Shown here: one piece after another, positions 23,393 to 48,832 of the stretch
Numbering within the stretch: the first letter of the stretch is position 1
Layout of the letters: each line of letters starts with the position of its first letter
Assembly (NCBI GenBank): GCA_032718475.1
Contig: JAUCBJ010008848.1
Span: forward strand, 36,395-100,394
Direction: 5' to 3'
Length of the DNA stretch: 64,000 nt
From: Nemertoderma westbladi
Lineage: Eukaryota > Animalia > Xenacoelomorpha
Position numbers and translations under genes: made by a program
The notes under the pieces: model-generated
The model's database searches: none
The model's input: the letters and a program-made list of their open reading frames with translations, nothing else
What the model was told of the DNA's origin: nothing

Positions 23393-25042
23393 ATCTGCTA
23401 TCTGAGTTTATTAATATTAGTATGAGTCAATATTTAGGCAAGTGGGCGTCGCTGCCTACTAGTCTTTGCCCCCGGACAGTGGGTTTCTCAGCGCCGATGT
23501 ACTGTTGTCGCGGTGTTTACGCCAACATGTAGCAACAGCACGACAACGATAACCGGCACAAGTCCCACCACTGTCCGTCCCAAAGGCTTGAATCCACTTG
23601 AGGTTATCTCGGTAGAGTTAGGGCTACTTTACAATTGCGATTAGCTACTGTAAACACACTTTAGTAGTAACATTCACTTATAAACGCACAAATTCCATAC
23701 AATCATTACTTACTGCACACATGCAGGCCATTTGTCCGTTAGTCAGTGTCTTCCAGAATGTCACGTTATTACTATGTATCCTTGGATACATAGTAATTAA
23801 GGAAATATTATTAAGAAAGATTATAGGAAATAAGAGTATACTCTTATGCTACGCAATGGGGCAAGCTTTTTGTTGTTCCTTTAACTTGCTTCTAATTCTA
23901 GCGTGGGTGTTGCCATGGTGACATTATGGAAAACTAGCGGTAGAATTAGGGTAATTCTCATGCATACAGATCTGGGATGTTATTTAATAGTAATTCTTTA
24001 ATTGTCAATATCCTCTTTATGCATGATTTTATAAATTTTATCGGCTATTGACTATATGCTGGAGATTCTCGCACTTTAATACACTCAATATGAATCTCCG
24101 CTCCCATGATCTATTAATTACTGGAATTTTGGGAATGTTATAAATTGCACAAAATGACAATTTATGAAATTCATTTGAATATGAATTTAAATTTATTCCC
24201 GTGAATTTTATTATTTGATGTTAAAATTGACACAATTTGATTCCAGAGCAGGTCTGGGGGCATAGGATCCTTAATTCTATGACAATTGTCTTTTAAGAGT
24301 ATCGGTAAGTGCTGCGATATCTTAATTGACTAGAAATTTAAAGGATCTGAATTTTACAGATTTTACTAAATATTAAATTAATATTTAAGATGGGCACCGA
24401 TTTATTCCAGAACTTGTCTGGGGACGTTAACCACTGATTCTAGAATTTGTCTTTCAAGTATATCGGTGGGTGCCGCGATATCTTAATCGACTAGAATTAC
24501 AGATGGTCAAAGTTTAACAGATTTATTTGCGTTTTACGCTACTGTTATATGGACATCACGCTACTATATGTATTATTTAATATAAGGTAGAAGAGCAATA
24601 TCGCACGAAGCAATGTCAGTGTGAAGAGGCAAGTCGTTTCCAAGGTCTACCCAGAGCTTGGTTTAGCCGAGACACGAGGATCTGAACTTTGCATTCCTAA
24701 TACTCTGCCTACCAATAATACTTGAATATAGTAGTGGCTTTATTGTACTTTAAGAAGTACGGACATTTCATCTTACTGTAGTCACGTATTTATAATATGA
24801 TACGGACAGTAAGGAAAGAGAAAAAATTATTTCTCGCCGTCGCACTAAATATATATTATAAGTAATTACGTACGTAATAAACACTAATATATTGCACTAA
24901 TCTACTAAATAATCACTAAAAATAACATTCTACTAAATAAAATTGAATAAAAACGATTATAATAAAGTACATAATAAAGTTTGCATATAAAGATATAACA
25001 AAATAGATAAAATAATATAGTCATACACCCACTCCAGACGTA

Positions 25043-28000
25043 TCACGTTTGGGAGTCCCTAGATGTTTGAGGAATTAGGGAGGTGGTCGTGGGAAGAGTG
25101 TCCTGTCTTCCATAGTTTCCAGAGAGTTCTCTGTCTCTTTCCAGTAAACATAAACGACCAACTGGGCGATTGAGTTGTTGCGTCTCAAAGATTATACCGG
25201 GCTTCTTGAAGTTACGCCGCATAACGATGAGTTCTACTGAACGCACTAAACCATCCTCCGAAATATGGGTCTCGATGATACGACCTGTCTGCCACCGTTT
25301 ACGTGGGAGGTCTGGATCTACAATAAGTACCATATCTCCGGCGCTGACGTTTTCCTGCTGCGCAAACCACTTAGTTCGAAGTTGTAGCGTGGGCAGGTAA
25401 TGTTTCTCGAAATGGTCAGCGAAACGACGGGATAGCAACTGCATAAGTTGCCAAGTTCGACGGCAGTATTCGTCTCCGTCGGCAATCTCCGATCGTGGGA
25501 GCATGGCTACCGGTTTCTTCAGTAGGAAGTGCGCAGGTGTTAGCGCTTCCAGGGAATCGGGACTCGATGAGACTGGCATAAGCGGTCTCTCGTTGAGATA
25601 GGCAGCTATTTCCTCCATTAACGTCCGCAAAAGTTCGTCGGTGAGATACGCACGGCATGGCACTATAAAGTGAAATGCGGTCCTTAACACTTCTAATTAA
25701 TCTCTCCCAACTTCCTCCCCACCAAGGGGCGTCGGCGGCGTTGAAGGTCCAGCTAGACGCTGTTATCCTTAGCTGGTCATCCACCTGTCTTTGGTTCCAG
25801 TCTTTTACGTAAGCCTGTATTTCGTTGTTGGCACCAATGAAGTTCGTTCCCTTGTCCGATCTCATGGTATTACTCGTACCGAAGCGAGCGATCTGTCGTC
25901 GTAAACTTAAGACGAAACTGTTGGTAGATAGATCGTTCACCATATCGAGATGGATGGCTCTGCAAGTCATGCACACGAAGATGACACACCATCTCTTGAC
26001 TATAGTCCTCGCACGATATACTTCAATAGGGCCAAATAAATCTACACCAGTATTAGTAAAAGGTGGTTCATAGAAGCTTACTCGTTCCCTAGGTAATTCT
26101 GCCTCTCGCTGTGTTAAAGGCCTACTGAATGTTTTCCTACAGGGTATGCAGTTCCTAAGAACTTGGTTCAGAGCCCTACGGGGTTTATCAAAATAATAGC
26201 GAGTTCGAATTTCGCTAAGAACTCGTTCTCTTCCAGCATGATAAAGCTTACTGTGAACATCTACAATCATCTTGATTTGTACTTCAAGATTTCTAATGAG
26301 TATGGGGAATTTAGTGTCAAAGGATAAGGGTGCATTGGTTAACCTTCCTCCAACACGTATTAACCCATCTATCATTGTGCTAGAGAATCGATCCCTTAAG
26401 CGCATCTGCGGATTTCTCAACAACAGGAAATACTTTTCGGAATCCTCATAGCATTGCAGGAGTCTCAGTATCTGTTTATTAGTCTCTTCATGCTCCTGGT
26501 GACTAATTTTCTCCTTTAGAAAACTGTCAGATATCTTATATTTAGGTAAGTTTTTAATAACATGAACTTGTGCAGATGTCAATGGAGCGTTATCACTGGT
26601 GGTCTTCGCCCTGGAGTATTGATGATGAAAGCATCTCTTTAAATATGTGACGGCTTTACAGAGCCGATTCCAGGAACTGTAGTGATGCATCGCTCTCTGC
26701 AGCAGGGGTGAGATTCCTTGCGAGACGTCTGGTATTCCAGATTTCCAATCTCTATCTCGAATTTCCGCAACAGACTTATTTATAGCGAGGGATTGTGGAT
26801 CCAAATCATCGTTTCCGGAAACATGTAATACAGATAGATCGATAGTCGGTTTAAATAACTTCGATTTACTCGCCCGGGTTTTAGGTTTGACGGTCTCCGC
26901 TCCCTTGGCTTGTCTAATTTCCGCCGTAGTAAGGTGAGGAGGCCATTCGTCCTCTTCCATGCTCAGGAAGTCGGGTCCACCCAACCAATCTGGAGTATCT
27001 ATCAGTTCCTGTGGAGTTGCTCCCCTGGAGGCGATATCGGCTGGATTAATCGTACCAGGGCAATGTCTCCATTGATCTATCTTTGTGCGACTAAGAATAA
27101 TAGCTACCCTGTTAGTAACAAAAACGCTGAACTGACAGACTTCATTGGTTAGATATTCCAACACGAGTAAAGCGTCGGTCCAATAAACCGTTTTCTCCAG
27201 TGGGTAATCGATTTGTTCCGTTACGTTCCGGCCGATGGCTGTAGCGTATAAAGCCACTTTTAACTCCGCTCGAGGAACCTTTAACTTGTTGTTAATCAGT
27301 GCCTTAGAGGTAACCAAGGCGACTTTGATCCCATCCGGAGTTTCGACTCGCAGATATGCTATTATACCTATTCCCATGTCGCTGGCGTCTCCAAACACAT
27401 GGAGTTGATAGGAATACGTCGGAAGAACGTGTCCAAAATATGCACGGGAAATGATAAAGTTCTCGATGGCAGGTAGAGAATCTTCCCATTTCATCCATTT
27501 CTTCAACAGTTCTCCCTTAAGCGGATCATCCCATGAGTGGTTTTCAAGCCACATCTGTTCTACTAAACTCCGAGCAATCAATATAACTGGGCTAATAAAT
27601 CCCAATGGGTCGAAATAAGTGCTCAGGATACTTAAACAAATCCGTTTGGTCCGGACTGGATTATCTCGCTGTTTTAGCTGAAAAAACAGGATGTCTCTTT
27701 CAGTGTCCGACTTCAAGCCTAGCGTCTTGGTTTCAGGAAGATCGTCCTTTATTAAGTCTAGGTCTTTCGCTCCGCGATCCTCTACCGGTATGGCTTCCAG
27801 AAACTCACGGGAGTTACTAGTGAATTTCGTCAGTCGAAATCCACCTCTTTTCAAACACTCTACCGTTCCTTTCGCGACAGCTATGGCTTCTTCTACTGAT
27901 GGAAGGGACCTTAAATTGTCGTCCATGTATATATTGCGTTTTATGTTGTCTATCACTTCTTTGGAGAAGGAGTCTCGGTTGTCATTCGCAGTGGTTCGCA

Positions 28001-29486
28001 CCACGGAGCAGGCGTTGGAAGGGCTAGATATGATCCCAAAACCCTGGATGGTCATCCAGTACTCTACCGGTTTCTGGTTGAGGTCTCCTTCATGCCACCA
28101 CAGAAATCTCAGGCTGTCTCTATCTCTCTCCAGTGCCTTGACTTGTAAGAACATTCCTTCGATATCGGAAGCGAACGCGATGGAATATTGTCTTAATCTC
28201 AAAAGTATTCCCAACAAAGATTGGAGTAAATTGGGTCCTGGTAACAACTCGGAATTAAGGGATTGGCCCATATATAGAGCAGAGCCATCGAATACGACTC
28301 GTACTTCATGGGGCTTACCGGGTTTGGGAACGTAATGATGTGTTAAGTAATACGTTCTCTCAGTCACTGGTGTTCCTTCCGGTACTCGCTCCGCGTATCC
28401 CTTTGTTATAAATTTCTTAAGCTGAGTTTGGTACATTTCTTTCGCTGAAGCATTAGCTGTAAGGCGTCGATGTAATTGAGCGATTCTTTTCTCGGCCAAG
28501 AGTCTGTTATTTATAAATCTAGGTTCTCGTTTTCGAAATGGCAGGCCGATTTCATACCTACCTTGATCTTTTAAAAAACGTGTAGTTGTTTCCTGGATTT
28601 GCTTGGCTCTTTCTTCTTCTATCGATAGAGCCTTATCATACGAATTGGGCTCTACAAGTTCCTGAGTAAAGAATCGTACGGCTAGTTCGTCCCGAGTTCT
28701 AGCGTTGTAGCGATCTACCTCGTCATTAAGTTCGTCATCATAAATAATGGATTCCGTTGGGTGAATCAGTTGACATAGGTTCGCTTGGTTTTCCCAAGTT
28801 TGATTCTCGGTAAGTAGGTCAATTGTGTTCTCTTCTTCGAAGAGTTGGTAGATGTCGTCATTATCTGAGGAGTATGGTGTTCCCTCAGTTAGTTCGTCCA
28901 CCTCACTGCTCTCCTCGCTCCAATCGCTCACATGATCTACTCGTACTTGTGGCATTCTCTCTTCGAGAGTCCTGCGGGAAGGGCCAGTAAAGTACCAACC
29001 TACTCTAGTTCTTACCGCATAGGTTTGCAGTGGCTGCGGTTGAGCAGGTCGTTTCTCTAATGTTTCGAGCGCCTCATGCGCGTTTTGGCCGATGAGGATT
29101 TGCACTCCAGGATAATCTGTCTGGAACCGAGGTATCTTAAGATGTTGGATGCTCTCATCTTCGTCCCAATTATAAAGGTCTGCTTGAGTAGTAGCGAAGT
29201 TCTTTATAGCCACCATTTTTACCGACCTTATACCTTGTGTTCCTAACTTATCCTGGGGAGTGGACAACACACCTAAGTAGTAATCTGCCGTTAGGGTAGA
29301 TTTCCAAACCTGCATAATTCCTGACATATTCAATTTAGTCCGGAACTTGGGTTGTCCAGCAAAAATATCTTCGGCTAGTTCTTGATCGATGAATGTTCCT
29401 GTGCTGCCGGAGTCAAGGAGGGCGTTCACTATGTAGCTTTTGTTAAGACCGTGAACTCTTACCTGAACTACAGGAAATTCTCTGAT
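25043..29486 (-). CDS. pol: B pol: aspartic protease, RT, RNase H, integrase (frameshift near 25690)
   Basis: ALLDSGS, VRVVFDGS, DIEGMFLQV, YMDD, LHVFGDAS, NPADIASRG, GVDLFGP, SDKGTNF, WGGSWERL, LNERPL. Confidence 0.95.
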
Positions 29487-32400
29487 TCATACGTTGGAAG
29501 TTGGCGTTTTCCAAGATGGTTGTTTGTCAAAAATAGTTAGGGGAAACTCATTGTTGGTGTCCTTTTCATAAGTAAGTGCTCGATACACGGCGGTATTGAT
29601 TAGATAACAGGATTCGTTGGCGTCGGAGAATTCGTCAGTATAGAATCCTTCCATCTCAGACTCCTGATCAGTGTCGTTTACATCACTGAATTGGACATGT
29701 AGTTCGGACTCACTTACCTGACTCTGCTTGTCTCGTTCGAACTCACTATGTAACAAGATGTGATGTTTCGCACCACACTTTTCACACTTTATGTCGGAGT
29801 AACAGGTTCGCCGTTGGTGTCCTGGTCTGAGGCAATTATAACATAACCGCTTGTCCCACACAACTGTACGTCTGTCTACAAGGGATTTCTTTAGAAATTC
29901 CGCACACGCACTCAAACGGTGGGTCCCGTCGCACAGCGCACAGTTAGGTTTTATGTTACTTACTTTACCTTGGGTAATCTGATGCACTCTCGTTCTTTCT
30001 TCGGGCTTTCTTCCGCGCATTCTGCTAGGAGACTGAGGAGGGGTCTTAGCAACCTGTTCTCTCCTATTGTTGGTTCGAGCCTTGTATTTACTTACGTCCT
30101 TGGAGGTTTTGTCAACATAGTAAGATCGTTCGGTGTCTTTCCCGCTGTCTTCTTCTTGAGAAGCTTGGCTTTCGCCGTCGTCAGTGTAACACACAGGTGT
30201 TACTCTTCTCCTAGAAGTGGGTTTCTCACTTACCTTATTTTCCGATGTTTTCTCTCTGGACTGCTTGATGAGTTGTAGTTTTACTTCACCATCTAAGAAA
30301 GACATGAGATCAGCCATGGTAGGACTTCGTCGTTGTTGTTCATTCATGTACAACACTTTCTTGTCCCAGCGTGTACATACTCCACCCTTTGGTAAAGTAG
30401 AGACTACGGCTCCAATAACCATGGAACTCTGATATTCATGCGACTTACCTAACCAGTCCAGTTGTCTACAGATCTCTTGAATCTCATCGGAAAACTCTAT
30501 AATCCCGCTACTAAGGAAGTGTCGAGGGGCCACTAATTTCGCATACAAATACTTAGCTATGTTATCCTTGTTACCATACCTGATGTTTAATGTATCCCAA
30601 ACTTGTCTTAATCCATCTGGATGTCCAATAAACTTTAACGCCATTAACTTGGGAGGTCCTTCCAAGCACTTGATGAGGAATCTAAGTTTCTCTCCGTTAG
30701 ATAGTACAGAGTTCTGTATGCTATCTTTGTAATATTCGTTGAAAGGTAACCATTTCATCTCATCTCCATTGAATTTGACGATCTCTCCCACTTTGACCGC
30801 TTGGCGGGCTTCTGTTCTAGCCATCTGACGCGTAAAGCTTTCTTGGGCCATCGTGTTATTTAATATCGAATTATCGGTATATAAATTTCTCGGATCATTA
30901 TCAGGTCTATAGGGAATATCATTAATAACAGGTCTATAATCACCCTTAATAGGGTTTGCTATAGGAGTTTCTACTTCACTAGCAGTATAGATGCGTGTAG
31001 GCTCCACACCTTGCGCATGTAATACTTCAGACCTAACAGGTTGACACAATGTTACAGGGGGTATTGGTATGCCCTTTTGGATATTGACTAATTTGTCGCG
31101 TTCTAGTGCGATACTTTGCTGCACTTCTTGCAACTCTGCTCTACCTTCCCTCACTGTTCCCTTAAGTTGGTGGACAGTCTCCTGCATCTGTCCTAGCAGG
31201 AGATTCATCCCCCGCCGTCCCTCCTCTACCCACTCAACCGCCGAAGCGGGAGTCGCCAACATTGTAGCGGGCTGACGCGGGACGACGGGAGACAAATCTT
31301 TGATTCCTCTCTCAATGCTCAGGACAGGGGTATTTGCATGGACTGTTCCACCGGGTACAGGCAGTGTGGTACTATGTAAAGGGAATTTAGAGTTAAGCTC
31401 TGGAAGTGCAGGGGTCTCTAGCACAGAAGTGACTTTGGGAACGACAGGCCTAATTATTTCAGGTTCATCGACTATAGTAGGGAGTCTTTTGACCTGGATA
31501 AATTGTTCTATGGGTTCTGCACTACCTAAGTCTGTGCTAGTTAGCTGTCTTTTAACAGCTGGGGGCAAATCAGGCAATTTGCGACGGTAAGATGTTTTTC
31601 TACGCCTACTTAGATGAGATCTATTTCCTCCGCCTTCAGGATCGGTGGTCTCGCCTTCCTCCGAGGATGTGTATCCCTGGCGCTTGGGAGTAGATTTTCT
31701 CATCATCTGCATTTGATTAGCAGTAAACTGTTTATTTATACTGTCTTGTGTCTCTTGCAGATTTTCCAACTCCAGTTGGATAGTCTCCTCAGAAGCTCTC
31801 CGTTCTGCTTCTGCCACTGCTGCTTTTCTTTCTGCTTCTGCTTCTGCTTCTGCCGCCTTTCTTTCGGCTTCTGCTTTTGCCGTCTTTCTTTCGGCTTCTG
31901 CTTCTGCCACCTTTCTTTCGGCTTCTGCTTCTGCCGACTTTCTTTCGGCTTCTGCTTCTGCCGCCTTTCTTTCGGCTTCTGCTTCTGCCGCTGCTGCTGC
32001 TGCCACCTTTCTTTTCTCTATCCGTTCTTTCTTTACTTGTTCTTCTCGGACTCTAGTGAGGCGGAGTTTTTCATCACAATCAGCTTGGTTTGCAGCTAAC
32101 ATTTCGGCATCGATTGAGTCCAACACAAGCTTGGTTCCTTCACTATTAGGGGAAAGTCCAGACAGCCGTCTCCTCAACTCTTCGTCTCCTAGGAATCGCT
32201 GATAGTCGGACAGATAAATGTCGATAGCGTCTCTAGTTCGCGGTTTCTCGGCGGTCTCTTCGCTTTCCGCTTGAGAAAGGGTGACATCAGTTGGGTCTTT
32301 ATAAGTTAGTCTCTCAGACAGCTGGGATTTCCACTGGTCCGTTTCTTGCACTTTGCGACCTACTCGCTGGAACCAAGTCTTAACAGAAACCTGCAGCGAC

Positions 32401-33179
32401 GTGTCCTGTCTTCTTTTGGAAGTTTCCTCAAAGGCTGATAGGATTATTCTAATACGTATGGTTCTTTCGCGTACTTGATAAAGCAGCTCTTCCTGCTCTT
32501 GAGGTCCTTGAGGTTGTCGAAACAGTTGTTCTTCTAATCGCTCTAAGGAGCCGAAGAACCCTTGCACATATCCTGCTGCCGACCTCTTCCAAACAGCTGG
32601 ATCCATTGTATCTTTAGTCACTCCCATCCGGTGTATATCCTCCCAAGTAGCTTCGGACAGATCTAACGGGAGTCCAGGTCCGGGAAAGTTCCATTGTGAC
32701 TCGACAATAGACATCAATTCTTCCCTGGCGTATCCCGCATAATTATCTTGGGTCGCTTTCTTATTCCTCGCCCAATCTGCTTGATGTTCCTCCACCGCAA
32801 TCAATATAGTGGTTAGCACTGCGACAGGAAGGGTGAGAAGAGGGTCCGAGTAGGCTGTAGCCGCCATCTGCAATCCGCGTTCGGGGGTCAGCTCGACAGT
32901 ATCTGAACTACTGGAGCTATCGGATCGCTGGGAACTAGTTTCTTGACTAGGCTGTTGCTGCTGTGGGACAGCTGCTTCCTGGTTCCGTTTGACTTGGGCC
33001 CGAGTACCTATGATGGACCTATGGTGGATTAGCTTAGGGTCTGATACTACTGGAGGGGTGACCTTTCTTGCAGTAGGAGGTGAACTGAACTCCTTTCTTA
33101 ATCGCTCTACACTCCTATCTGTGTCACAGATGGTTGTATCGATTAGACTGTCTGACAGGTTTTGCTGAGTGTCAGACAT
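29487..33179 (-). CDS. gag: B gag (coiled-coil AEAERK repeats, DUF1759-like capsid, three Zn knuckles)
   Basis: 1230 aa ORF; KFNGDEMKWLPF, EKLRFLIKCL, CALCDGTHRLSAC, CYNCLRPGHQRRTC, CEKCGAKHHILLH. Confidence 0.95.
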   Translation of the reverse strand: MSDTQQNLSDSLIDTTICDTDRSVERLRKEFSSPPTARKVTPPVVSDPKLIHHRSIIGTRAQVKRNQEAAVPQQQQPSQETSSQRSDSSSSSDTVELTPERGLQMAATAYSDPLLTLPVAVLTTILIAVEEHQADWARNKKATQDNYAGYAREELMSIVESQWNFPGPGLPLDLSEATWEDIHRMGVTKDTMDPAVWKRSAAGYVQGFFGSLERLEEQLFRQPQGPQEQEELLYQVRERTIRIRIILSAFEETSKRRQDTSLQVSVKTWFQRVGRKVQETDQWKSQLSERLTYKDPTDVTLSQAESEETAEKPRTRDAIDIYLSDYQRFLGDEELRRRLSGLSPNSEGTKLVLDSIDAEMLAANQADCDEKLRLTRVREEQVKKERIEKRKVAAAAAAEAEAERKAAEAEAERKSAEAEAERKVAEAEAERKTAKAEAERKAAEAEAEAERKAAVAEAERRASEETIQLELENLQETQDSINKQFTANQMQMMRKSTPKRQGYTSSEEGETTDPEGGGNRSHLSRRRKTSYRRKLPDLPPAVKRQLTSTDLGSAEPIEQFIQVKRLPTIVDEPEIIRPVVPKVTSVLETPALPELNSKFPLHSTTLPVPGGTVHANTPVLSIERGIKDLSPVVPRQPATMLATPASAVEWVEEGRRGMNLLLGQMQETVHQLKGTVREGRAELQEVQQSIALERDKLVNIQKGIPIPPVTLCQPVRSEVLHAQGVEPTRIYTASEVETPIANPIKGDYRPVINDIPYRPDNDPRNLYTDNSILNNTMAQESFTRQMARTEARQAVKVGEIVKFNGDEMKWLPFNEYYKDSIQNSVLSNGEKLRFLIKCLEGPPKLMALKFIGHPDGLRQVWDTLNIRYGNKDNIAKYLYAKLVAPRHFLSSGIIEFSDEIQEICRQLDWLGKSHEYQSSMVIGAVVSTLPKGGVCTRWDKKVLYMNEQQRRSPTMADLMSFLDGEVKLQLIKQSREKTSENKVSEKPTSRRRVTPVCYTDDGESQASQEEDSGKDTERSYYVDKTSKDVSKYKARTNNRREQVAKTPPQSPSRMRGRKPEERTRVHQITQGKVSNIKPNCALCDGTHRLSACAEFLKKSLVDRRTVVWDKRLCYNCLRPGHQRRTCYSDIKCEKCGAKHHILLHSEFERDKQSQVSESELHVQFSDVNDTDQESEMEGFYTDEFSDANESCYLINTAVYRALTYEKDTNNEFPLTIFDKQPSWKTPTSNV

Positions 33180-34514
33180 GTTTAGCTATACAGTTGAATG
33201 CTTACTGCTATAGTTACAGTTAAAGCAAGTCTAGTAATTCAGTATGACCGCTGGCCTAGTACCGGTAATTTATTGCAGTATATTAGAATACCGGTATGCA
33301 CTTATAATATATATAAGTATTGTAAACTAGGTTTGTCACAGAGTACCGGTATATAAATTTAGCACAGATATATATAAATATATAATAGGCCTATCGTGAA
33401 TACCGGTATACAGCTTACACTGATAGTATATATAAGTATAATTATGAACTAGAATTAATTACAGAGTACCGGTATGATTTCAGCTCAAATTTATAGAAAT
33501 AAATATAATAAGCCTATGGTAAATACCGGTATGTCAATTATTTTAGAATAATTGAATTTCTGAATATTTTAGGGTTACTTGGTTACTTTAACTTACTTTA
33601 TTACCGTTATTTAAGCAGTAGTCCAACTGATATTGAGACCTAGTTGTTGTATGGCAGGCCTACTATTTATAAATCGTTTGAGTTGATTTATAATAGATAT
33701 ATACCCGTTTAAAATGGGTTTGTCAATACTTGAAATAAATGTTATTATTTCTGGGGGGTCACTACACAGAAGCTGTGCGCTCTCAGTGAAGTGCTATTTA
33801 TTTGACACTAAAACTGATAATTCTAATTTACCTAAGTTACTTAATACTACAAATTACTTACGATACGGGTGAGATTAAATCTCTAATTAAACACAACAAA
33901 AAATATTACGTACGAATTTTTAGGGTAATTTTACAGGAAGTCTACAAACCAGCCTAACAAAGGGTTAGAATTCTGGTTATTACAATGGACAGGGTACTAC
34001 GGTATTTGAAAATAATAAGTAGTAGTAAATACACTGCGTTGTCCAGATAGGGAAATACCACCGCCTGACGACCTATAACCGTATCGCTATAGGTACTACG
34101 TTATGTATCACGGATTGTTCCTACCTAGAAGTTAATAGAGCTAACGAATGTGCCTATCAACCACTTTACAACACAAATATACTGCCTACACACTAATTAC
34201 TTCGGAAAGCACTGTACACTAAACCCTAAATTAGGTACAAGTACCGGTATAACCAATAATCAGTAGTTAAATATACTTGAACAGTTAAAAGAACCACGGC
34301 ATCTGCTGAAGTGACCAGAGCACAAAGTCACCAGTCTTGTCCTACGCCAAGCAGCCCGTGTAGTACCGGGGTTAATTTAACTATAACGGTATGTATAACA
34401 AGCACAATTACTGTAGGAATAAACTTGGGGACATGAATGTTGCGAATAATCGCATAAACTCTGAATAATAAATATTACGCTACCCGTACAGAATACTCAA
34501 ACAAAATACAAACC

Positions 34515-35030
34515 AAACGCTGGCAGACTACCACCAAGCCTAAATAAACTACCGTACGTGTAGATTCTGAAATGGTTAGTTAGTATGCGTTCTAACACGG
34601 TAGTACGACTTATTCTTTAAGAGGGGATTGACCTTACAGCATATGGCTGCCCCAACTTACTAACCTTTTATCAGACAAACTCCACACACACAGCAATCTC
34701 TTCAGACCTAATAATAGCTAGACAACAATCCAGCCTACAAAATATCTGAGTAATAACTATTACGGTACCTGAACAGACCACACAAACAAACACAGACTAA
34801 AACGCTGGCAGACTACGATCAAGCCTAAATAAACTACAGTATATGCAGATTCTGAAATAGTTAGTTAGTATGCGTTCTAACACGGTAGTACGACTTATTC
34901 TTTAAGAGGGGATTGACCTTACAGCATATGGCTGCCCCAACTTACTAACGGCACTTTATCAGACAAACTCTACACACGCCGTAATCTCTCCAAACCCAAC
35001 AACAGTCAGACAGCAGCTCAGCCTACAATT
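34515..35030. repeat. ~285 bp imperfect tandem duplication in the B 5' leader
   Basis: aaacgctggcagactac...gcatatggctgccccaacttactaac...agcctacaa occurs twice. Confidence 0.88.
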
Positions 35031-35389
35031 ATCTGAACAATCTGAGCAGACTTACACGTCTTCAGCTCAATATTTACTTACTAGGAAATAAAACCGACAG
35101 AAATAAGTAAAATCTCAATAAAAACCAGGGCGGCCGTCCCTGATAAATACTAAGACCTTACCGGTATACAATAATCAAATTCGAATAATACTAATGTACT
35201 TATACAGCAGTACCGGTTAGGACATTAGGGCCTACAGACCTACAGAAGTACCGGTTCTGGCAGTTGGACCTACGGACCTACAGCAGTACCGGTTCTGGCA
35301 GTTGGGCCTACTGACCTACAGAAGTACCGGTTCAGGTTTACCGGTCACTACGGTATTTTGCAACCTTATTGCTTACTGCAATAAGATCG

Positions 35390-35400
35390 ATAACTGTTAT
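35390..35400 (-). promoter_or_regulatory. Non-tRNA primer-binding site of B (ATAACAGTTAT)
   Basis: Abuts the 5' LTR; exactly complementary to the minus-strand LTR sequence at 36126-36136. Confidence 0.65.
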
Positions 35401-36568
35401 TGTTCGCGCTTTTGAAGACCTTTAGCAGTTTAACCTGCCAAAATTTATATGTCTTTTAGTTAATTAAACCACCCTTAGCATACGACAATATTTTATGCTA
35501 ATAAACAAAACATTAACCGAAGCCAGCCCATGCGCGATCATTCACCCGATGGATACACCCGGGAGGCTGAATTCGGCTGCTTAAATTTTATTATTGCAGT
35601 GTAAGGTTGCAGTGTAAACCTACTGTATTATTCGATTGATCACTAATAATTAATTTCTGACAGATATTATTGGCTTTCGGGAAATATTAACAGTTCCTTT
35701 AGGACGTGGCGCTCTATCTATTTAAACAGAGCTAGGACTTATACTAAACGCAACGATACTGCTTATGATTAAAGTATAAGGCGAATTCTTTAGGAAATGC
35801 TTTGTTACCAATCACAATCATGCACACTATTCTGCCGACCGTCAGTAAATTTGATCACACATAAAGAGAGCAGCAATTGACTCATGTAGGGTCTGCTAAA
35901 TAACATTAGATTCAATACACACCACATTGATATAAATCGCAATTGTTATATATAGCCTGTCTCTCTAACCTGTAGTGTATCAAGAAAATTGGGAAATTTG
36001 GGTGATTTATCCGTATTCTCCAAAGGGCAATATTTCATCAACAAATAGATACAATTAATAACTGACGGTAAATAACAGTACAAACAATATGATTAATAGT
36101 GAGTTAATTAGATCAGTTAGATTAGATAACAGTTATACTTTCGATAATTTAAGCAGTTTTACTAGAGTTGTTCCAAAAGCCGGTGTTATGGCGAAATATG
36201 GGAACACAACAACAGAAACATGTGACTACTTGACTATACGAGGACACCAACTACCCTTATTCCCCGAAGCTCCCGTCCAACACAGAGGATGAGCATACAG
36301 ATAGGAAATTCAGTTCAGTAGCTCTGGGATAGGTCAAAATCAACGCCCACTCAAATTCTATTGGCCGATACGGACAGCAGGGCTGAGGCAACCTCCCTAA
36401 GCTGGTTGGCCGATCGAACAGAACCCAGATACCTTCGTACAGCACATCAGCCAATAAGCTGGTAGCTTGCACTATTTTAGCTATAGATCCCTTTTAGAGT
36501 ATTCTAGCGACCGGGGGGGAACTGGCCAGCAAGGCAAACGAATCAGTTATCCCACAAAAGCTTTTACA
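35401..36568 (-). repeat. 5' LTR of B
   Basis: Direct repeat of 20698-21865, upstream of gag on the minus strand. Confidence 0.97.
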
Positions 36569-36986
36569 ACAAGGCCGATTTTCTTTTCCAAAAAAATTTA
36601 TTGGTAGGCTCGCAAGCCTTCCATCCGCTCTTGTCCTCCCCAATTTTAATTTTTATCTAGTTGTATTCTAGAATTCGCATTCACTGGAGAATCAATTTTC
36701 TTAAATTTAAATCCAACTGAATGGATTTGTCTAATAATTTTTGAAAAATTGTCTCACTTGTGGGTTCCAAGTGGAATTCCATTCCTACTGTACACACAAT
36801 CCCGCTCCTATGTGATACATAAGGGTACTACCCTCCTTGTTCACATATAAAGACAATGGAATTCCACCGCTGTCTCTATCTACAGTGAAGAGGATTACTA
36901 ATGCACATACAGTAATACAAAATACTAAATTACTAAAATACGGTAAGTCTATGTGGCGGCCATCAAGGGTCCCACATCTCTATTTT

Positions 36987-39708
36987 CTAAGATTGGATGA
37001 CGATTTGTAGTCTCCTGTCTCCTGTCTCGTTTCTAGTCTCCTCAAGGAGTACGAGTCGTTGTACAGGCCTATCTACGGTACGTCCGTCGATAGTCCGTAC
37101 AGTAACTGTCCTTACTACACCAGATGTAGGGTGCATGGTCAAAATGACTCCAGTCAGCCAAAACCGTCTTTTCAGATTGGCTTCAGCCAATAAAACATGG
37201 TCACCGCATCTTAAACATCGGGTATTAAGATACCAAGAGGTTCTGGTTGAAATAGAGGGCAAATAATGCTTCTGCCATATTTCCCAGAATTTATTGGCTA
37301 TCAGCTGAGTGATTTTCCAAGCTTTGTTGCCGTATCCGTCGCTATCGACAGGTACCGAAGTGGGCAACAGTGTCGTTGGTGCCTGCATAAGCAGGTGCGC
37401 TGGTGTCAAGGCAAACTGTGCGTCGTTATTGTCTGGGATCAAAGCGATCGGTCGAGTGTTCAAAATCGCTTTGATTTCTATTAACAACGTCGTCAGTTGC
37501 TCGTCTGTCAATATGTGTTGCGTCGGTATTACTTTTGCCATAGCCAATTGATTGAGCCAATCAGCCTTTCCCAAACGCCGCCTCTCCACGGACTGCCAGG
37601 AGTGTTAAAGTTCCAAACAATACGGTGAGGACGTAGTTCCTCGGAAATCTGGTCTTGGTCCAACTTCCTTAAAGCTCTGGTTATTTCATTCCGTGCACCC
37701 ACAAAGTTAGTCCCTTGGTCGCAATAAATGGATTTGACCAATCCACGTCTAGCGATAAATTGCCCTAAGGCTAGGATAAAGGCGTTGGTGGTCAAGTCTG
37801 TCACACGCTCTATATGGACAGCTCTGCTGGCCATGCAAGTGAAGATGAATCCCCAACGTTTTACCTGTACCCTTCTGCGTTTCGCGATTATAGGTCCAAA
37901 GCAGTCTATCCCTGTCTCAGTGAAAGGGGGTCTAAACGCCTGTAATCTTGCTAGTGGTAGTTCACTCATTTCTTGATGTCCTGTCCTCGCGTGCACCTTC
38001 TTACAAATTATACAGTTCTGTGTTACCGAACTCAGTGCCTTGCTAGGCCTAATCAGTACAAACCTCGATCGTAAGTGTACTACTAGGATCGGCATGCTGC
38101 ATTGCAGCTGCATTTTTAAGAATACTGTGCCGGAGAATACTGTTCGGTTTAAAGCCTTGTACACGGCCAGTTCGGTTTAAAGCCTTGTACACGGCCAGTT
38201 CGGTTTAAAGTCATGTACACGGCCAGTTCGGTTTAAAGCCTTGTACACGGCCAGTTCGGTTTATATGTAGCCTTGTACACGGCCAGTTCTGTTAGTTGAC
38301 ACAATAATTATCCCGGACATTCTTTCTTGCATCTTGCCCCTCTTCCTTGTAAGGCGGGAATTGTTGGACACACTATCCAACACCTGTTTGAGCACGTTAA
38401 GCCCCGTTCACATCTAACGGTGCGTGAGCGGTAAAGTAGTCTAGCGGTATTGAAGCGGTAAGCCAGCGGTACACTACCCGGAGCCTGTTCACACCCAACG
38501 GTACCGTTGCGGTAACTGATTGTCTATCTGTGGACTGTGAATTCAACAGAAAATTAGGGGGTGTGTACATTAATTGTTTTAACATTGTATAAATGGGCTA
38601 CGGTAAACCGCGCGGTTTAGCGCTACTACTAGGATCGGCATGCTGCATTGCAGCTGCATTTTTAAGAATGCTGTGCCGGCTTGTCAACAAAATTGCACCG
38701 CCACAACTCCCTATCACCCATGACATTTGTTAGATCATCCGATTCTTCAAGGCAGTGTCCTTTAAGATGCGTCTCAAGAAAGTCATGGGCTGTCCACCAT
38801 GCTTATTCACTCCATGAGGCTGCCAAAGTACAAGATTATGCACTGGCTGGTCCTCACGGCGAAAGCAATGTCCTGCAAAGTGTGATAGGCAGTGATATCG
38901 TAAGTGTGATAGGCAGTGATGTCTACCCACGTGTTTGTGTCATACATGTGCGTCCTGTATCATAGCGCGCTGTAACTCATGGTGTTGCGGTATGATGATA
39001 GGATACCTAAAGTCAAGTGCAAAGTCAATGTTCTGGAGTCTGGACTTGTGACAAAGTAAGCCCCTGTAAATAATCGGACTCCAACTCAAAATTGGTGAAG
39101 ACTTGATCTGTTTACCCTGATTGATCGCTGTGAACTCTCGTGCGAAATATCGCAATTGATAATGGCGAATAATATCAACTTCACAAAGACCAACTTCCTC
39201 TAAGGTAAGTCTTCTAGGAAAGTCGCGTTTGCCTCTGGCATATTGTCTCAAACGTTTGAGCCATGCTAACTTGCGGCACGCGTCTGTCCATGATCTAGTT
39301 AGGTTTACTATCCTGTCAACGTAAGTGTTAGTGACGTCATCCGGTGAGGTGTAGTCGTAATGTGGATACTTGTTCGGACTTGGTAGGCCCACGGGCCTTC
39401 TGGTAGGTGTCTACCTTTGTACAATAGGTTTGTCTGAGTCCTCAAGTATGTCAATCTCCACGGTCTTACCTCTACCGTCCGCACCTAGTGAATTGACTGG
39501 CAGTAACGGTTTCAACTCTACAGTCCTAGTGTGTTCCTGTGAGCTTGTAAGCTTCCTAACCTTAGTTACACGTTTACCTGTAGGTGGTAAGTCAAGTATT
39601 TTCCTTGAGCGGAGTGTGATCGCTGTGGCCACACCTTCGTCGACCAAAGAAGTCAAATTCGGTAAGTTGTTAACCGCTTTCGTCCTTCTGGGCTCCTCCC
39701 CGAGGTAC
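36987..39708 (-). pseudogene. pol: A integrase region, interrupted by the RTE composite insertion
   Basis: GIDCFGP, CDQGTNFVGA, PWRGGVWERL, ILNTRP, RPVQRLVLLE. Confidence 0.92.
38079..38896 (-). mobile_element. Composite RTE insertion: RTE 3' fragment + ~490 bp foreign DNA + second RTE 3' end
   Basis: RTE tail tactaggatcggcatgctgcattgcagctgc at 38081 and 38628; single TSD ATCGTAAGTGT (38068-38078, 38897-38907); 28-bp tandem repeats at 38143-38290. Confidence 0.82.
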
Positions 39709-40842
39709 ACCATGAGGCGGACGTGTTTCCACCACCCCGGGGGCCAGTCCGACTGACATTTCTATCAGTCGGATCGTCATAACCGGGCCGCAGGGTGGCC
39801 CGATGCTTCCCGGGTTCTGTTTTCGGTCCCCCGATCACACCGGCACAGCTCGTCAAACATGTAGCCAGATGGTCGGCTACTGTCAACTTACTGTGGCCTG
39901 ACTGTACATTGAGCCAACTCAAAAGTACAACAAAGAGTCAACCGGCAGGTGGACCAGTTGATAGCGATCGAGCACCAAGGTCACCCTTGGACCTAACCGA
40001 CGGTCTTGTCCCACATGGGCTTGTGCTACCCAACATTGGAATTTTGACTCGTTTTCACCTGCCTCGCCGGCAGTATTGAGGGGAAGTAAGTTCCACAAAC
40101 AATACTGACTAGCTCGAAAGCTAGGAACAAGTAACCACTTACCAGTCACTGTACACGTGTACTCAACAGATGTTCACAAATCAAGTACACAACGGTAAGC
40201 ACAAATTCGAACACATACCATGCACACACAGAAGACAAAATCGGTAAAGACAAAATCGGGGTCAAAATCGAGAAAGACAAAATCGGAAAGGACAAAATTG
40301 TATCGACTCATAAAAGAGTCGAGAGTACCTTATTTTGCCGTCAGGGCAAAATAACTTTGTGTGCACAAAGTATGCTGGGGCGCAGTAGATATATGGTCCT
40401 ACTAATACCAGCGGCGTCTGGACCAACTGGCAAGGGTTCCCATACTCACTCGCAGTGGCCACACATACAAAACAAATCCCAAAGACCAATCAGCTGAACA
40501 TGGAGACAATAACATATAGTATCAAAAAAACGGAACAGCTGATGGCCAAAGGAACCCATCCAAGCCCCAAGCAAACTGCCACTGATCACCCACATACAAA
40601 ACATAGTTCATGCCACATGAACCACAAATCACGCCATGCCACCACCCCTACTGTGTACAGGACTGGCAGTACGTCATCAGGCCGACTAGACGGTACCACG
40701 GCACCATGTCGATTCATGGTTCGCTAGACACGAGGGCCTTAAGTATCTCTCTTGCACTTACACCCAAATTTAACGTGCCCCCAGACCCTCACGAGTCTGC
40801 CGCCGCCTGTTTTAGGCACCCATATAGAGACCTCACCTCTTT
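39709..40842. mobile_element. Unclassified 1.13 kb non-coding insertion in A pol
   Basis: Flanked by AGGTAC direct repeats (39703-39708, 40843-40848); no TG..CA ends, TIRs or tail; GACAAAATCG repeats at 40234-40300. Confidence 0.65.
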
Positions 40843-40848
40843 AGGTAC

Positions 40849-43141
40849 CTAATGGGTGTGTACTAGTCCGCTCCAATGAATTCATTGCGTCCTTAAAATA
40901 CATGTAGTTTGTTTCCAATGGAAAGTCTAGTAGACAGTCTGGTGAGGCGTCCGGTGAACAGTCTGGTGAGACGTCTGGTGAGACATAGCGAGGAACTTCC
41001 GGCGCAATGTCCTGTCGTTGGTCCCAAAGAAAGTCAGCCATAGCTTCTGTAAGAAAGTTTGGTCTAAAGTCTGGTGGACAGTCTGTCGAGATGTCTGGTG
41101 GAAAGTCTGGTGAAACGTCCGGTAGACAATCTGTCGAGAGTTCCATGAAAAAATCTGGTGAACAATCCGGAGAACAATCTGGTGTCGCTTCTGGTGAATA
41201 TTCTGGCGAGTAATCTGGTGAACAATCCGGCGAAACGTCTGGTGAAATCTCCCGCGGAACATCCGGTGAAAGATTCATACGAGCGTCTGGTCGAGATTCT
41301 GGTGAGACGTCTGGCGTAATGTCAGGTCTAGCGTCCAGGTCATCAGATTTCGTCCGTCCTTGTTTCCTCTTGACCTTGGCGTTGGCTTTCGCTTTAGATT
41401 TGACAACTGTGTCGATTTTTATCTTGGCACCCTCTGGTATGGTATTGGTTGTTGCGTCGAATAACAGTGGCCATTCGTCTGATGGTCGTTGTAGGAAATC
41501 GGGTCCTCTAAACCAAAAGGATTTATTGTCCGGTTTACAAAAGTCGATTGGTAGCATCCCCCATGACGCGATGTCAGCTGGGTTCAGCTTCCCTGGACAG
41601 TGACGCCAATCTTGTTTGAGCGACCGGTCCAATATTTCAGCCCGTCTGTTGGCTATGAAAGTCTTGAACTTAAATGATTCGTTGTTTATGTGCCAAATAA
41701 CCAACGTCGCATCCGTCCAATATGTGACCTTCAAGTTAGCCTCCAGCTCGCGTTGAACTAAACTGTCAATATCGGTGGATATCGTCCCGGCTTGCAGCTC
41801 TCCACGAGGTACAGTCATATACTTCAGCGGCATTGTTCTAGCCCTTGAAGTAACGAGAGACACTTCGTAGCTGTCCGATGTCACTTGTCGTCTAAGGTAC
41901 AAATTAACCCCCAGTCCATCCTTACTAGCGTCACTGAAGCTGTGAAGCTCTAAATCGGCAGGAAAGCTGGTCTGCAAAGGAAAGTATACCCTTGGTATGG
42001 TATAGTCTTGTAGGAACGTCAGTTGGGCTTCCCAGTCCCTCCATTGCTCAGCTAACTTTTTTGGGATGGGATTGTCCCATTCCAGTCCGGCTTGCCAAAT
42101 GCTGCGGAGTATGATCCTAGCATGTAGGATCACTGGACTAATGAAACACAATGGGTCATACAATCGACTCATGGTCGATAAGCAAGTCCTCTTGGTGAGA
42201 GGTCTAGTCTGGTCGTTGGACCTTACACGTACCCTAAAATTGTCGGTGTTAGGGTCCCAACTAAGGCCTAATACTTTGGTCGTAGGTAGAGGTTCTAGGT
42301 CTAAGTACAAGTCACCTCCACTGCAATCCGTCAGGTCAAATGAGTTCACTAGTTCGGGTTCGTTGGAAGCGAACTTCGTAAGGCGGAATCCGCCCTCATC
42401 GAGACAATCCTGGAGTTGGTGTGCTACGGTCGTAGCGCGCTCCAGAGTGTCACAACTCTTGAGGACGTCATCCACGTAGAAATCTCGTTCCACTGTCCGA
42501 ACTACTTCTGGGTCAAATTGGTCTTGTCTGTCTAATGCTGTCTGCTTTAAGGCGTACATGGTGCAGTTGGGGCTGTCCCTGGCTCCGAAAACGTTTACCT
42601 GCATTTGGTAAGTTTCTGGCGGAAGTTCTAAATTTCCGTCCGGATACCAAAGAAACCTTAAACTGTCCCTGTCCCGCTCCAAAGCCTTAACCTGGTGAAA
42701 CATGGCCTCTACGTCACAGGTGAAAGCCACTTTGCGTTGTCTAAAACGCATTAGGACTCCCATGAGGTAATTATTCATATTCGGCCCGTCCATCAATTCG
42801 CTGTTCATAGACATCCCTTGGTAAAGCGCAGCGTAGTCGTTGACTACACGCACCTTGCCAGGTTTGTCTGGGTGTCGAACAAAATGATGTGGCAGGTAAT
42901 ATGTCTGATCTGTGGTTACCTCAGGATTTAACATCCTAATGGCGTATCCCTTTTGGAGATACGTCTGAAGTTGCGCATTGTATTGCATATGGGCTGTCTC
43001 ATCACGCAACAATCGCTGCCTTATTGATTCGAGTCGCTTCAAAGCAAGCGGGTAGTTGTTAATGAGCTTAGGTTGTCCATTGCGCCACAACATGCCAACC
43101 TCGTAGTGGCCATTCGCAGTCTGGCAAATGGTATCTTTCAT
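40849..43141 (-). pseudogene. pol: A RT-RNase H followed by an SPDx-repeat linker
   Basis: YYLPHH, KVRVVND, DVEAMFHQV, FYVDD, LHSFSDAS, NPADIAS. Confidence 0.93.
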
Positions 43142-43146
43142 AATAT

Positions 43147-44562
43147 TTAATGACCGTTTTTCCTGGACATAGCGGTCTCATAACTACCGGGTTCTGCTGA
43201 GTCCTGTTCCAACCATTGAATGGTTCGTTCAGTCAGCAGTCGGTCAAGTGCTGCTTGCACTGCGCCATGGTCCTCATCCACGTCTTCGTCCGCTGCGGTG
43301 GCTGGTGTCAATGTGTCTGGTAGGCTCGCAAGCCTTCCGGTGTCACTAGTCGGCGTCGAATCGTCGTGTGGCGGTTTGACAACCTTCTGATCTGTCGGTA
43401 GGCTCACAAGCCTTCCTAGATCAATGACCGGTATCGAAGCCTGGTGGGTGGGGTTAATGACCTTCGGATTTTTCGGTAGGCTCGCAAGCCTTCCAAAACC
43501 CTCGTTCATCAAGTCATCCATAGCAACAACCCTTTGGTTTTCAGTAGTCAATACAACCTGGTTAACTGCAAGTAGTTGTAAGTCAGAGGTCCGTGTGGTT
43601 GTGTCCAGATTGGTTACGTCAGTATTGGTTACGTCTGCATTAGCGACGCAAGTCTGTCGTAGTGCAGTCTGTACAATTGGACCACAGGAGTGTGAAGGAG
43701 AATTATCTATCGTAGTAGTCAGTAAACTACACGTACTCAAAACGTCGTCCTCCTGGTCACTTACCTCTAGTGAACGCACTGGTGCTCTAGTATACCAACC
43801 TATGGGAATTCTACATGCACAGGGGTTGCCCGCTGGAATATCAGATGGCCGTGTCTCCCATACCTGATGTAAGTTAAACTGGTCTGTCCCAATTAACATC
43901 GTGATTGAACGATAATTAACACGACATTCCGGTATTCCAAGGTGTCGGAAATACTTACAATCTTCCGGTGATTGCTCTGGCACAGGGCCGAGCAAGTTAC
44001 TAAAATCCTTCGCAGCTGCAAAGGTCAAATTTCTTACCGGAAGTAATGAGTGCTCCTCCTTGCTGTGTTCCGCTTTGGAAAGAAGAGTGTCTAAGGTTAG
44101 TTTTACTCTCGTCACAGGAATCGCTCTCTTACCATGCATGCTGCTTACAGTATACTGAGCAGTCTTACCTTGACTCAAGTCCGTAACCACGTCGGCTACT
44201 TGTTCGTCGACGTAACTATGCGATGACGCAGAGTCTAAGATAGCGTATATACGCTTGCTCCCTCGGGTTCCGGTAATCTTTATAGGAATCACGCTAAACC
44301 CTTTTAATTGGTTCTGTGTGAGGAGTGTTACCGATGGTTGTTCCTCTCCCGCATGCACGTAAAAAGTGTCGTCTTCCTCCTCATCCTTGTCCGATGATCC
44401 CGATTGATCCATACAATCCGCGTAGAAAGTACGAATCTCGTGCGGCGCATGCTCCTTGTAAAGCGCGTCGCATCTAGCTGCTTTATCTGGATGCTCTCGT
44501 CGAAAGCGTTTGGTCGGGAGTATGACTGTTCGTGTGAAGTAACGCGTCGTGGTTACGTCCAC
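43147..44562 (-). pseudogene. pol: A aspartic protease region
   Basis: VIPIKITG..YAILDSASSHSYV, MLIGTD, IPIGW. Confidence 0.88.
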
Positions 44563-44670
44563 ATAGAGGACATGTATCGTCGCTCGGGCAATCCTTCCGG
44601 ATGTGTCCAGGCTTTGTACATCTCCAACAAGAATCTAAAGATCGAATCTGAAGTCATCTTTCTTCGATTC

Positions 44671-47600
44671 CTAACTCCCTAAAAGCGCAACATCCACGTA
44701 GTTTATGTCCGCTATGGTTTCTGCCACAAAGTCCGCCGGCAACTGTTGTCGTGGCTGCTTGGTGCCAATAGGCATCAGAACTTTAGATGTCTCAGTCGGG
44801 GTGGCATAGGTAACGGCCTTCGCTTTCATCGGAAATGGTTTGGTCCGAGTCAGCGCAGCAATAGTTATCCCTTCTGCCGCTATATGGTGATCGGTATAGT
44901 TTGATCGAGTCTCCACTACGGCCTCCCGCAAAATCAGTTGGTAGACGTCGGTGAGTTTCAGCAGCCCGCCGGCCTCTTCACACTGATACTCGATGCATCG
45001 CCATTCTCGTTGTAATCGATGATGAAGTCGACCGATTATTCGAATGAGAACTGTCGGTGCGTTAGCGTATTCGAGTTGTCCAATGGACCGTAAAGTCCCT
45101 ATAGCGTTCTTTATTTCGTCCACGAGTCGTAAAAGATCGATCGGTTTCAAAATACTTCCTCCTCTACAGAGGTCTTCAATAATGGATTTAGCCATGGCGA
45201 TGTTGCCGCCGTAAATCGAATATAGATGGTTGTATGCCAACTCAAAAGCATCTGGAACACCGATGAAGCTTTCCGCTAATCGTTTCGGCTCACCAGACAA
45301 AATTTGGAGCAAGTAGTTAAACTTCTCCGTCGAGGTGAAGGCACACTTAGCGATCTGGGACTCTACGTAGTCTACCAGTGTATGCCAGTGTTTCACGTTG
45401 CCAGAGAACTTCGGCGGTTTTTGTGCTGGTAATCCGTGTCTAGCGGCAAACTTCGCAATCTCGCTACCTAAATCCAACTGTCCGCGTCCCTGTTCGGTTG
45501 CGTCGTCCAGTCGTTCAATTCCGCGCGTTGTTGGTTGGTAGGAAATGTTAACGTGATCCTCTTCTCGATGGTTCGGAGTCTGTCTAGTCTCCTGTTCTCT
45601 CCTTGGTGGTCGATGTTGTCTAGGTTGTTCTAACTCCACGCTGGTCCGTGATCGATCCGACGGTTGCGCTTCGAGTCGCTCTTCTAGTTGCGCTAGTCGG
45701 TCCACCATCTCTGTGAACTGTTTGGCGCTAATCGCTTCCGTTGGTTGCAACGTGGGTTTCTGAAAGGGTGTTTCTCATGGAGGATTGTTGATGAATTGGT
45801 TCATCGATCGTTCCTCTCATTTGTAATCAGCCACTGCTGCTGCTCCAGTACGGAATATTTCCCGTTCCGTCGACTCCGTATCGCTAGATGAGTTGCTGTC
45901 GTCCGGATAAGGTGGTTGGCGGGTTCGCATTCAGCGTATTATTCTTTGTCGCATTCGTTGAGGTCTAGGATCTATGAAGTCATAGGTCTCGTTAAACTCT
46001 GTTTGATCCTGTGAGTACTACCCACATCCGTCCTCCTCCGTTGTTTGGTAGGCTCGCAAGCTTTCCACGAAGTCGTAGGTCTCGTCGAACATTGTGTCAA
46101 AGGTCGAATAAAACAGTCAGGTTTCGTAGTCGGGCTATAAATAACTGGGTTCGCACAGCACGTCACAGGTTTAACTGCTAACGGCTTACTTACCTGTTTA
46201 ATTGTCATAAACGCAGGTTCCTCTCTTCCTACAAGTAGACTACAACTTACTGTAGGTGGACTATTCACTTTACCTGCTAAAATCGGCGATGAAGTTGCCC
46301 TAGGTTGCGGTATTTCCGTCACAACAAACCTGTTACCTTGCATCGAGCGCACAGGTGATATTTCTTTAGGTTTCGTAACAAAGACCGGTTTTATCGGAGT
46401 TGTAGGTTTGAGCATAGGAATCACTTGTGGAAAACGTTTACAGTAATCCTTGACGAACTCCTCTCCTCGGTCTATCGCTCCCACACTTCCTTCCTCGATT
46501 CGCTTCTGAATCCCGCGATATTGAGCTTCCATGCGATCCAGGGCAGACAACTCATGTCCAGCTCGAGATCTTATAGATCTGTCTCTCGCGTCGAGTTCGA
46601 GGTCCGCTTGCGCGTTTGCTGCCTCGCGCGATCTACGATTTAGTTCAAACCGTAGTTGCATCTCCCTTTCGTGTCGATCTGCTACTTGTTGTTGTGCCGC
46701 TAACTCCGCTTCTTGTATAGCTAATCGAGCGTTTATTTGTCTCACTTCCAACTTGGCATGCGCGTCGGATGCTGCTTTCTTCCATGCTAACTCTGCTGCG
46801 TTTACCGTCGCAACTCGTGCTAATTCGTCGGCTGCAGCCACCGTTGCCGCTTCTTGCGCCAAATCTTCCTCCAATCTTATCATTTCTGAGGCTTCGAATT
46901 CAGCTCGCGCTTTGAGTTTCGCAATCCGTGCCTCGTCTTCTCTATGTTGTTTCTCTCCCTCGATGGCGATCTGTGCCATCTGCCGTTGCGCTTCTTCCTC
47001 GATGACTTGTTGTCGGCGTGCAACTTCCTGTTGTTGTTGAGTAATTACAGACTCTGTTCTACTAACGTCGCCAACGTCGCTCCGTACACTAACGAACGAT
47101 CTATCCAGTGGTGGATTTTGGTAGGCTCGCGAGCCTTCCATAGTAATAACTTCCGTCGTGCCTCGCGGTTCGACTTCCGGTTCTTCGATCGGTACGCCGC
47201 ATCTACAAAGAAAATTGGTGAGCGTCTCCAACCTCCCGTCTAGGCAATAGAGTTCTTCTTCCTCTTCGGGTTGCAACAACGCGTCTGAAACTGACTCACC
47301 TAGCAGTTGGTCGAACTGCTCCTGTTGAGCCAATCTTATTACTGACTTAAACTGGATGAGGCTTTCCCTCGCACTTACGAACTTATCTATTATCTTTACC
47401 TGAGTAAAGTTGTCGCCACGCAACTCTGCAAGTTCGTGTAAACCTTTAAGTTTATCTACGGAAGCATGTACCCTACTTTCTATCCTTACCTGTAAGGTGT
47501 AGAACTCGTATCTCGACATCGGGGCGGTTAACTCGCGTAAAACGCGAAAACCTTCTCCGAGGTTTCGAGTAATCTGGGCCATGTGTCCTCCTATACTCCT

Positions 47601-48822: not shown

Positions 48823-48832
48823 TATATCTCAC
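48823..48832 (-). promoter_or_regulatory. Non-tRNA primer-binding site of A (GTGAGATATA); second copy at 48786-48795
   Basis: Abuts the 5' LTR; exactly complementary to the minus-strand LTR sequence at 50134-50143 (6020-6029 in the 3' LTR). Confidence 0.65.

Follow-up and report, generated by a model that had tools for sequence, protein, structure and literature searches.

Element B, a 15.9-kb BEL/Pao LTR retrotransposon, likely uses its own RNA to prime reverse transcription. Such self-priming best accounts for an 11-nt site (ATAACAGTTAT) that begins directly at the end of the 5' LTR and has its exact complement within that same LTR. A preliminary description of this DNA had proposed tRNA-independent priming after the manner of Tf1; the tRNA-independent part is well supported, with relatives of B keeping the complementarity with different sequences, while the likeness to Tf1 proved partial. 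The description had rested its case on recurrence in two other elements, and the support goes much further than that, as pairing is kept across the relatives. In most of these the partner of the site lies across a predicted splice junction, and we lean slightly towards the view that a broad animal BEL/Pao lineage swapped tRNA priming for a self-primer assembled by the spliceosome from two LTR exons, which would make splicing the licence for reverse transcription. In this view B, Y and L021 are intron-loss forms that carry the primer ready-made, and the copying of the primer in plus-strand synthesis keeps the site in step.

Element B and its setting

Self-comparison and inspection of flanks indicate that the 64-kb window (the whole stretch of DNA analysed) is a nest of retroelements, in which X contains Z, Z contains Y and Y contains B (Table 1). 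The outermost element, X, is also BEL/Pao and has its 5' end outside the window. Self-comparison of the two B LTRs gives 99.7% identity, with just three differences, which argues that B is young. The LTRs have the termini TGT..ACA and the element is flanked on both sides by the 5-bp target duplication CTTGT; a candidate duplication around a solo LTR, ATAAC, was rejected in favour of it. B is placed in BEL/Pao because of its protein domains, which are Pao-type in both gag and pol, stand in the order PR-RT-RH-IN and include matches to PF05380 (1e-33), PF03564 (5e-12) and PF17921. The TG..CA LTR ends, polypurine tract and target duplication are likewise those of BEL/Pao. The closest database proteins are BEL/Pao polyproteins of 33-42% identity, of which those that are named come from marine invertebrates and fish, and PF05380 is present in nearly all B homologs listed. 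The integrase tail shifts to another frame from about position 25700, and the in-frame TGA between gag and pol (29487-29489) could be read through, as its counterpart in Tj1 is, or could be a lesion. Extra 3' ORFs occur in B and in Y (14614-20608 in Y, with Cys/His clusters and a weak zf-CCHC); neither set has a significant Pfam match, and by Pfam they are not env-like. A search among viral contigs found no relatives of B. In run X1, which consists of contigs only, the whole stretch is covered, with many diverged pieces and four joints that lack intron ends; depth is lower at 36146-36387, and we place no weight on this dip.

Several other features of the nest were observed. Units of 29 and 77 nt form a long tandem array (12443-13292) inside a gypsy RT gene, possibly an assembly artefact. 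A 19-nt near-palindromic motif (GGAAGGCT.GCGAGCCTACC) occurs at least eight times in Y and X, in coding and non-coding sequence (14363, 14511, 19774, 36622, 43338, 43494, 47139 and 60913, all on the minus strand), and may be a packaging or protein-binding signal. The Y 5' LTR holds a tRNA-like (SINE-like) stretch at 50840-50915, on which ARAGORN makes no call, and the Y LTR end together with its primer site is tandemly duplicated (48785-48840, 37-nt spacing), possibly through aberrant strand transfer.

Table 1. Positions of elements B, Y and Z in the window and of features bearing on priming
Feature	Position	Strand	Remarks
Element B	20698..36568	-	BEL/Pao; within Y
B 5' LTR	35401..36568	-	1168 nt; no GTRAG splice donor; single AATAAA from 35592 (LTR nt 977)
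B 3' LTR	20698..21865	-	1168 nt; second copy of the partner 11-mer at 21433-21423
B putative non-tRNA primer-binding site	35390..35400	-	Abuts LTR end
B candidate self-primer	36126..36136	-	LTR nt 433-443; exact complement of post-LTR site
B hairpin	35363..35387	-	Close 3' of the site; from folding; bases alternatively pair with LTR 35611-35591
B LTR segment complementary to leader	35591..35611	-	10 + 10 bp; overlaps AATAAA start; tentative
B gag-like ORF	29487..33185	-	DUF1759 (PF03564), zinc knuckles; ends in one in-frame TGA before pol
B pol	25043..29486	-	Protease, RT with YMDD, RNase H / Pao A17, integrase
B extra 3' ORF	21944..22993 (to 23392 at widest)	-	Cys/His clusters
B polypurine tract	21866..21875	-	
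Element Y	4723..51054	-	BEL/Pao; target duplication GATGT
Y non-tRNA site	48822..48832	-	Directly past Y 5' LTR
Y complementary LTR site	50134..50144	-	10 Watson-Crick pairs + 1 G-U; copy at 6030-6020
Element Z	3324..57474	+	Unclassified LTR element; target duplication ATCTG
Z non-tRNA post-LTR site	3920..3929	+	
Z complementary site	57261..57270	+	3' LTR; 10 pairs

Complementarity past the 5' LTR in B, Y and Z

The preliminary description had noted that no TGG-type tRNA complement follows the 5' LTR of B, and TGG is indeed absent from the first 30 nt past it; the 18-nt tRNA 3'-end site by which ICTV characterises BEL/Pao is thus not found in B. tRNA genes were sought in the 64-kb window and none was found. 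The exact 11-nt complement that the description had placed at 36126-36136 was also borne out. A match of at least 11 nt at offsets 0-4 arose in only 5 of 3000 Markov-resampled LTRs, and 2 of 300 shuffles of the site did as well. The geometry fits priming, in that the 3' end of the partner pairs with the first base past the terminal CA of the LTR. The duplex itself is weak (-10.1 kcal/mol), and the description's caution that the 11-mer is AT-rich and quasi-palindromic was justified. Of two further claims, the hairpin given at 35365-35385 is present in both the minimum free energy (MFE) and centroid folds, and the bulged extension of the duplex is real but weak, amounting to 4 bp (36145-36142 with 35389-35386) beyond a 5-nt bulge. 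No spliced extension of the B duplex was found, there being no GTRAG donor in the LTR and a best spliced match of 8 nt.

In B, Y and Z alike, an LTR complement of at least 10 nt begins 0-5 nt past the 5' LTR, which is the signature used for self-primers in the available portion of PMC6317226. The recurrence in elements A and C claimed earlier, which we take as Z and Y, therefore stands as matches of 10 nt with other sequences, with the restriction that the match in Z holds with its 3' LTR only, the 5' LTR copy carrying two substitutions. Resampled LTRs matched Y in 43 of 3000 cases at offsets 0-4 and in 5 of 3000 at offset 0, and Z in 7 of 3000 (offsets 0-4). Y has a TATA-like box at LTR nt 388, about 520 nt upstream of the partner site, with GTRAG donors between them. 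Z has neither a Pfam family match nor a pol match; its primer site is similar to that of Y, and it may be a non-autonomous partner of Y-like elements.

Complementarity to predicted splice junctions in relatives of B

Alignment of B pol with 21 homologs led to 79 metagenome loci (from the best 80 of 538) and 16 genome-contig loci, of which only some hold readable LTRs. These relatives have about 40% protein identity to B, and the median RT-RNase H identity among them is 48% in a 29-sequence subset. Loci L080-L095 and P0081 are animal BEL/Pao elements found in contigs assigned to bacterial MAGs and in one record that carries the name Streptococcus; host contamination is the probable cause. The contig of L059 and L060 carries tandem one-LTR units of a 6138-nt element, which would fit a circular form or an assembly loop.

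In 24 families, some of them related pairs and four (L022, L027, L035 and L064) with LTR ends chosen by eye, the post-LTR site can pair over 10-15 nt with the predicted exon-exon junction of a GT-AG intron in the LTR. The splice is predicted from splice signals together with the match itself, by rules tuned after many loci had been viewed, and the donors are mostly GTAAGT or GTGAGT. Under a strict rule with both LTR ends defined, 8 of 11 loci (excluding L074 and also L036, which duplicates another family) have 10-15 nt of complementarity, seven across the junction and L021 contiguously, and 181 of 182 non-cognate pairs reach 9 nt at most; the one longer match joins two related families. When the strict scan was extended to the upstream regions of the 79 metagenome loci, 13 gave at least 10 nt, and many of the others lack that region. 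With the LTR start alone fixed, 12 of 13 loci were positive, each matched by 0-1 of 60 resampled controls; these 13 are not a blind sample because they had been viewed before the rule was relaxed. The relaxed rule was applied to 20 loci and to B, Y and Z. Cognate comparisons yielded 10 nt or more in 20 of 23 cases and non-cognate ones in 5 of 506, with 8 of the 23 LTR ends derived from the scan itself. The 16 genome-contig loci were fetched once this rule had been fixed, and 6 have a readable LTR pair: three (L084, L085 and L090) were positive automatically, L088 and L093 after a manual LTR end or a 1022-nt intron, and L080 has 10 of 11 pairs. The duplex starts 0-4 nt from the LTR end, where the 3' end of a tRNA would sit, within a range imposed by the search.

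The misses were L054, which is TGG-type, L065, which has substitutions, L074, and L019, whose LTR ends in TA. Among 13 loci with the 3' end known from both LTRs (that of L074 being uncertain), a TGG-type site is clear in L054 only; at the others, inspection by eye showed the site to match both flanks of a GT-AG intron in the LTR. An intact relative with such a site had been named in advance as evidence against self-priming in B, and L054 is one, but it belongs to a distant family and leaves the reading of B unrefuted. Short hairpins were seen by eye at the very end of the LTR in L008, L035, L047, L065, L071, L072 and Z.

Paired changes between close relatives indicate that pairing is kept while the letters change. 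L084 and L085 (90% protein identity) differ at two positions of exon 1, which ends CAC in L084 and TAA in L085, and at the two corresponding positions of the site, GTG and TTA respectively; L047 and L049 are distinguished by a single T in exon 2 together with a single A in the site. The site thus covaries with its own LTR throughout the lineage.

The partner is contiguous in B, Y and L021, which probably carry it ready-made after loss of the intron, as we infer for B. A FastTree phylogeny places B as sister to Y (99, with a long-branch warning), and the two together within an open node alongside the junction-type L022, L027 and L028 and the TGG-type L054. As B and Y are left unresolved there, no order of events is claimed. 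L021 is sister to the junction-type L012 (99), and a rough alignment of these two revealed no clean intron loss. Since B has no intron, the strongest evidence from the family reaches it by kinship only.

Proposed mechanism, rival readings and known systems

Beyond the complementarity, we infer every step of the mechanism. Transcription of B would start upstream of 36136, so that the 11-mer lies in R and can pair with the site just beyond the LTR end. The duplex would then be cut at its 3' edge, probably through the RNase H that B encodes, as happens in Tf1, and a 3'-OH would be freed. From there reverse transcriptase would copy U5 and R back to the cut and then jump to the 3' copy of R, whose length would suffice given the AATAAA at LTR nt 977. 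During plus-strand synthesis the primer would be copied back into the site, and this would account for the joint change of site and partner. In most relatives the partner would exist only once the predicted LTR intron had been spliced out.

Folding agrees with the pairing step under a particular RNA start. The duplex is present in the MFE and centroid folds of an 821-nt leader, and its pair probability is 0.67-0.99 (mostly >0.9) for RNA starts at LTR nt 420-433, falling to 0.3-0.4 for a start at nt 380 and to about 0.04 at nt 300, so that a start 130 nt farther upstream loses the predicted duplex. Promoter-like motifs in the B LTR, one Inr-like at nt 504 and a TATA-like run at nt 615, both lie downstream of the 11-mer; should transcription truly start from either, cis priming from the 5' LTR would not work. 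An own-sequence primer acting in trans, either a short LTR transcript (spliced in the relatives) or the RNA of a partner genome annealed to unspliced genomic RNA, would spare B the closing of a 725-nt loop and would explain why reverse transcription has not removed the LTR intron in 24 families. We consider it unlikely, given that cis pairing is predicted at high probability in B if the RNA starts near the 11-mer, that intron retention may also come from a 3' LTR copy escaping splicing, and that Tf1, according to the accessible part of PMC7175516, takes the first 11 bases of its RNA as primer.

A shade less likely again is that the duplex is real and selected but serves as a regulatory switch between translation and packaging or as a dimer linkage, another RNA acting as the primer. 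Palindromes of at least 6 nt occur in 8 of 19 sites compared with 2.9 expected (7 of 2000 shuffles; the families are not fully independent), and the B leader has two competing folds, both as such a role would have it. Against this, no second primer site can be seen, the sequence past the LTR differs between families and tracks the LTR of its own element rather than a fixed host RNA, and the B site as a self-dimer reaches a mere -5.0 kcal/mol. One of the competing folds is a helix between the leader and LTR 35611-35591 that resembles an arm of the Tf1 pretzel, was equalled in 13 of 200 shuffles and competes with the hairpin; a helix at the U5 end was equalled in 45 of 200. Side helices of the Tf1 kind were not significant across 24 elements (a test in which Z was entered one base off) and have no general counterpart there. 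As a speculation, pairing of the leader (35361-35384) with the LTR segment that overlaps AATAAA could mask the poly(A) signal of the 5' LTR only.

That the match in B arose by chance, or as a functionless local duplication of a quasi-palindrome, is suggested by a long LTR, AT-rich 11-mers and their identity at 10 of 11 positions in direct orientation, and is nonetheless very improbable: the differing base completes the complement, few resampled LTRs match as well, the pattern recurs in Y and Z with different letters, and relatives conserve the pairing. The 3' end of the B partner may resemble an Asn anticodon loop, a point in favour of an internal tRNA fragment as primer with the LTR match incidental. 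Such half-tRNA priming does exist in some Ty1/copia lineages (PMC6317226), and L054 shows that a TGG-type site can occur among the relatives, yet we regard this as the most far-fetched of the alternatives, as it would not yield family-specific complementarity to the own LTR in 20 of 23 elements and, among the plant elements covered in the available portion of that source, is found in Ty1/copia only.

If self-priming in B and its relatives is correct, it has arisen in each of the three LTR superfamilies, and what ICTV states of Belpaoviridae, that they are tRNA-primed, fails for a lineage spread across marine animals. Such elements would escape any control exerted through the supply of host tRNAs or through tRNA fragments, and would be missed by annotation tools that demand a tRNA site. 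A splice-built primer would link the onset of reverse transcription to RNA processing and explain the persistence of the LTR intron, with B, whose LTRs are near-identical, as a clean intron-less case for comparison. We found no report of self-priming or of a splice-built primer for BEL/Pao in the literature searched; subscription papers, GyDB and Repbase lay outside this search and may hold prior notice. A term look-up in the main text of three BEL/Pao papers (PMC554778, PMC3118150, PMC6238403) returned neither "tRNA" nor "PBS".

As far as the sources were available, self-priming is established for Tf1, in which LTR-derived RNA forms an 11-nt duplex with a site after the terminal CA of the LTR and RNase H frees the primer (PMC7175516, PMC10085805, PMC4600332). 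It is predicted for Tf1/sushi, Tcn1 and the copia TAR lineage (the same sources and PMC6317226), and the accessible part of PMC3601003 mentions it for chromoviruses and a hypothetical ancestor. Like Tf1, Tf2 and Tj1 of the Tf1/sushi group, B has no tRNA site and has an 11-nt LTR duplex just past the terminal CA. It is not a member of that group, whose elements are Ty3/gypsy chromoviruses, as B is BEL/Pao and has no chromodomain match. Of the likeness to Tf1 claimed in the preliminary description, the 11-nt duplex and the position of the site hold, while the junction-spanning partner of the relatives departs from it and side helices are unsupported family-wide, the three-duplex pretzel of Tf1 not being conserved among the 24 elements. 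The primer of Tf1 is the first 11 nt of its mRNA, whereas the partner in B is a candidate primer within the LTR that may lie away from the 5' end of the transcript, and in the relatives it spans a predicted splice junction and so cannot be merely the first 11 nt of the transcript. The predicted self-primers of plants, Tcn1 (gypsy) and TAR/Houba/Osr-1 (copia), are defined in the portion of PMC6317226 available by an LTR complement of at least 10 nt, a computational signature that they have in common with B; they belong to other superfamilies and other hosts, and no splice-built partner is described for them there. Belpaoviridae are described by ICTV as tRNA-primed, with an 18-nt site matching the 3' end of tRNA-Arg or tRNA-Gly and a genome of 4-10 kb (PMC8742986). 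B shares with them the Gag-PR-RT-RH-IN order, Pao A17, DUF1759, polypurine tract, LTRs and 5-bp target duplication, and differs from them in having no 18-nt tRNA site and in its greater length of 15.9 kb.
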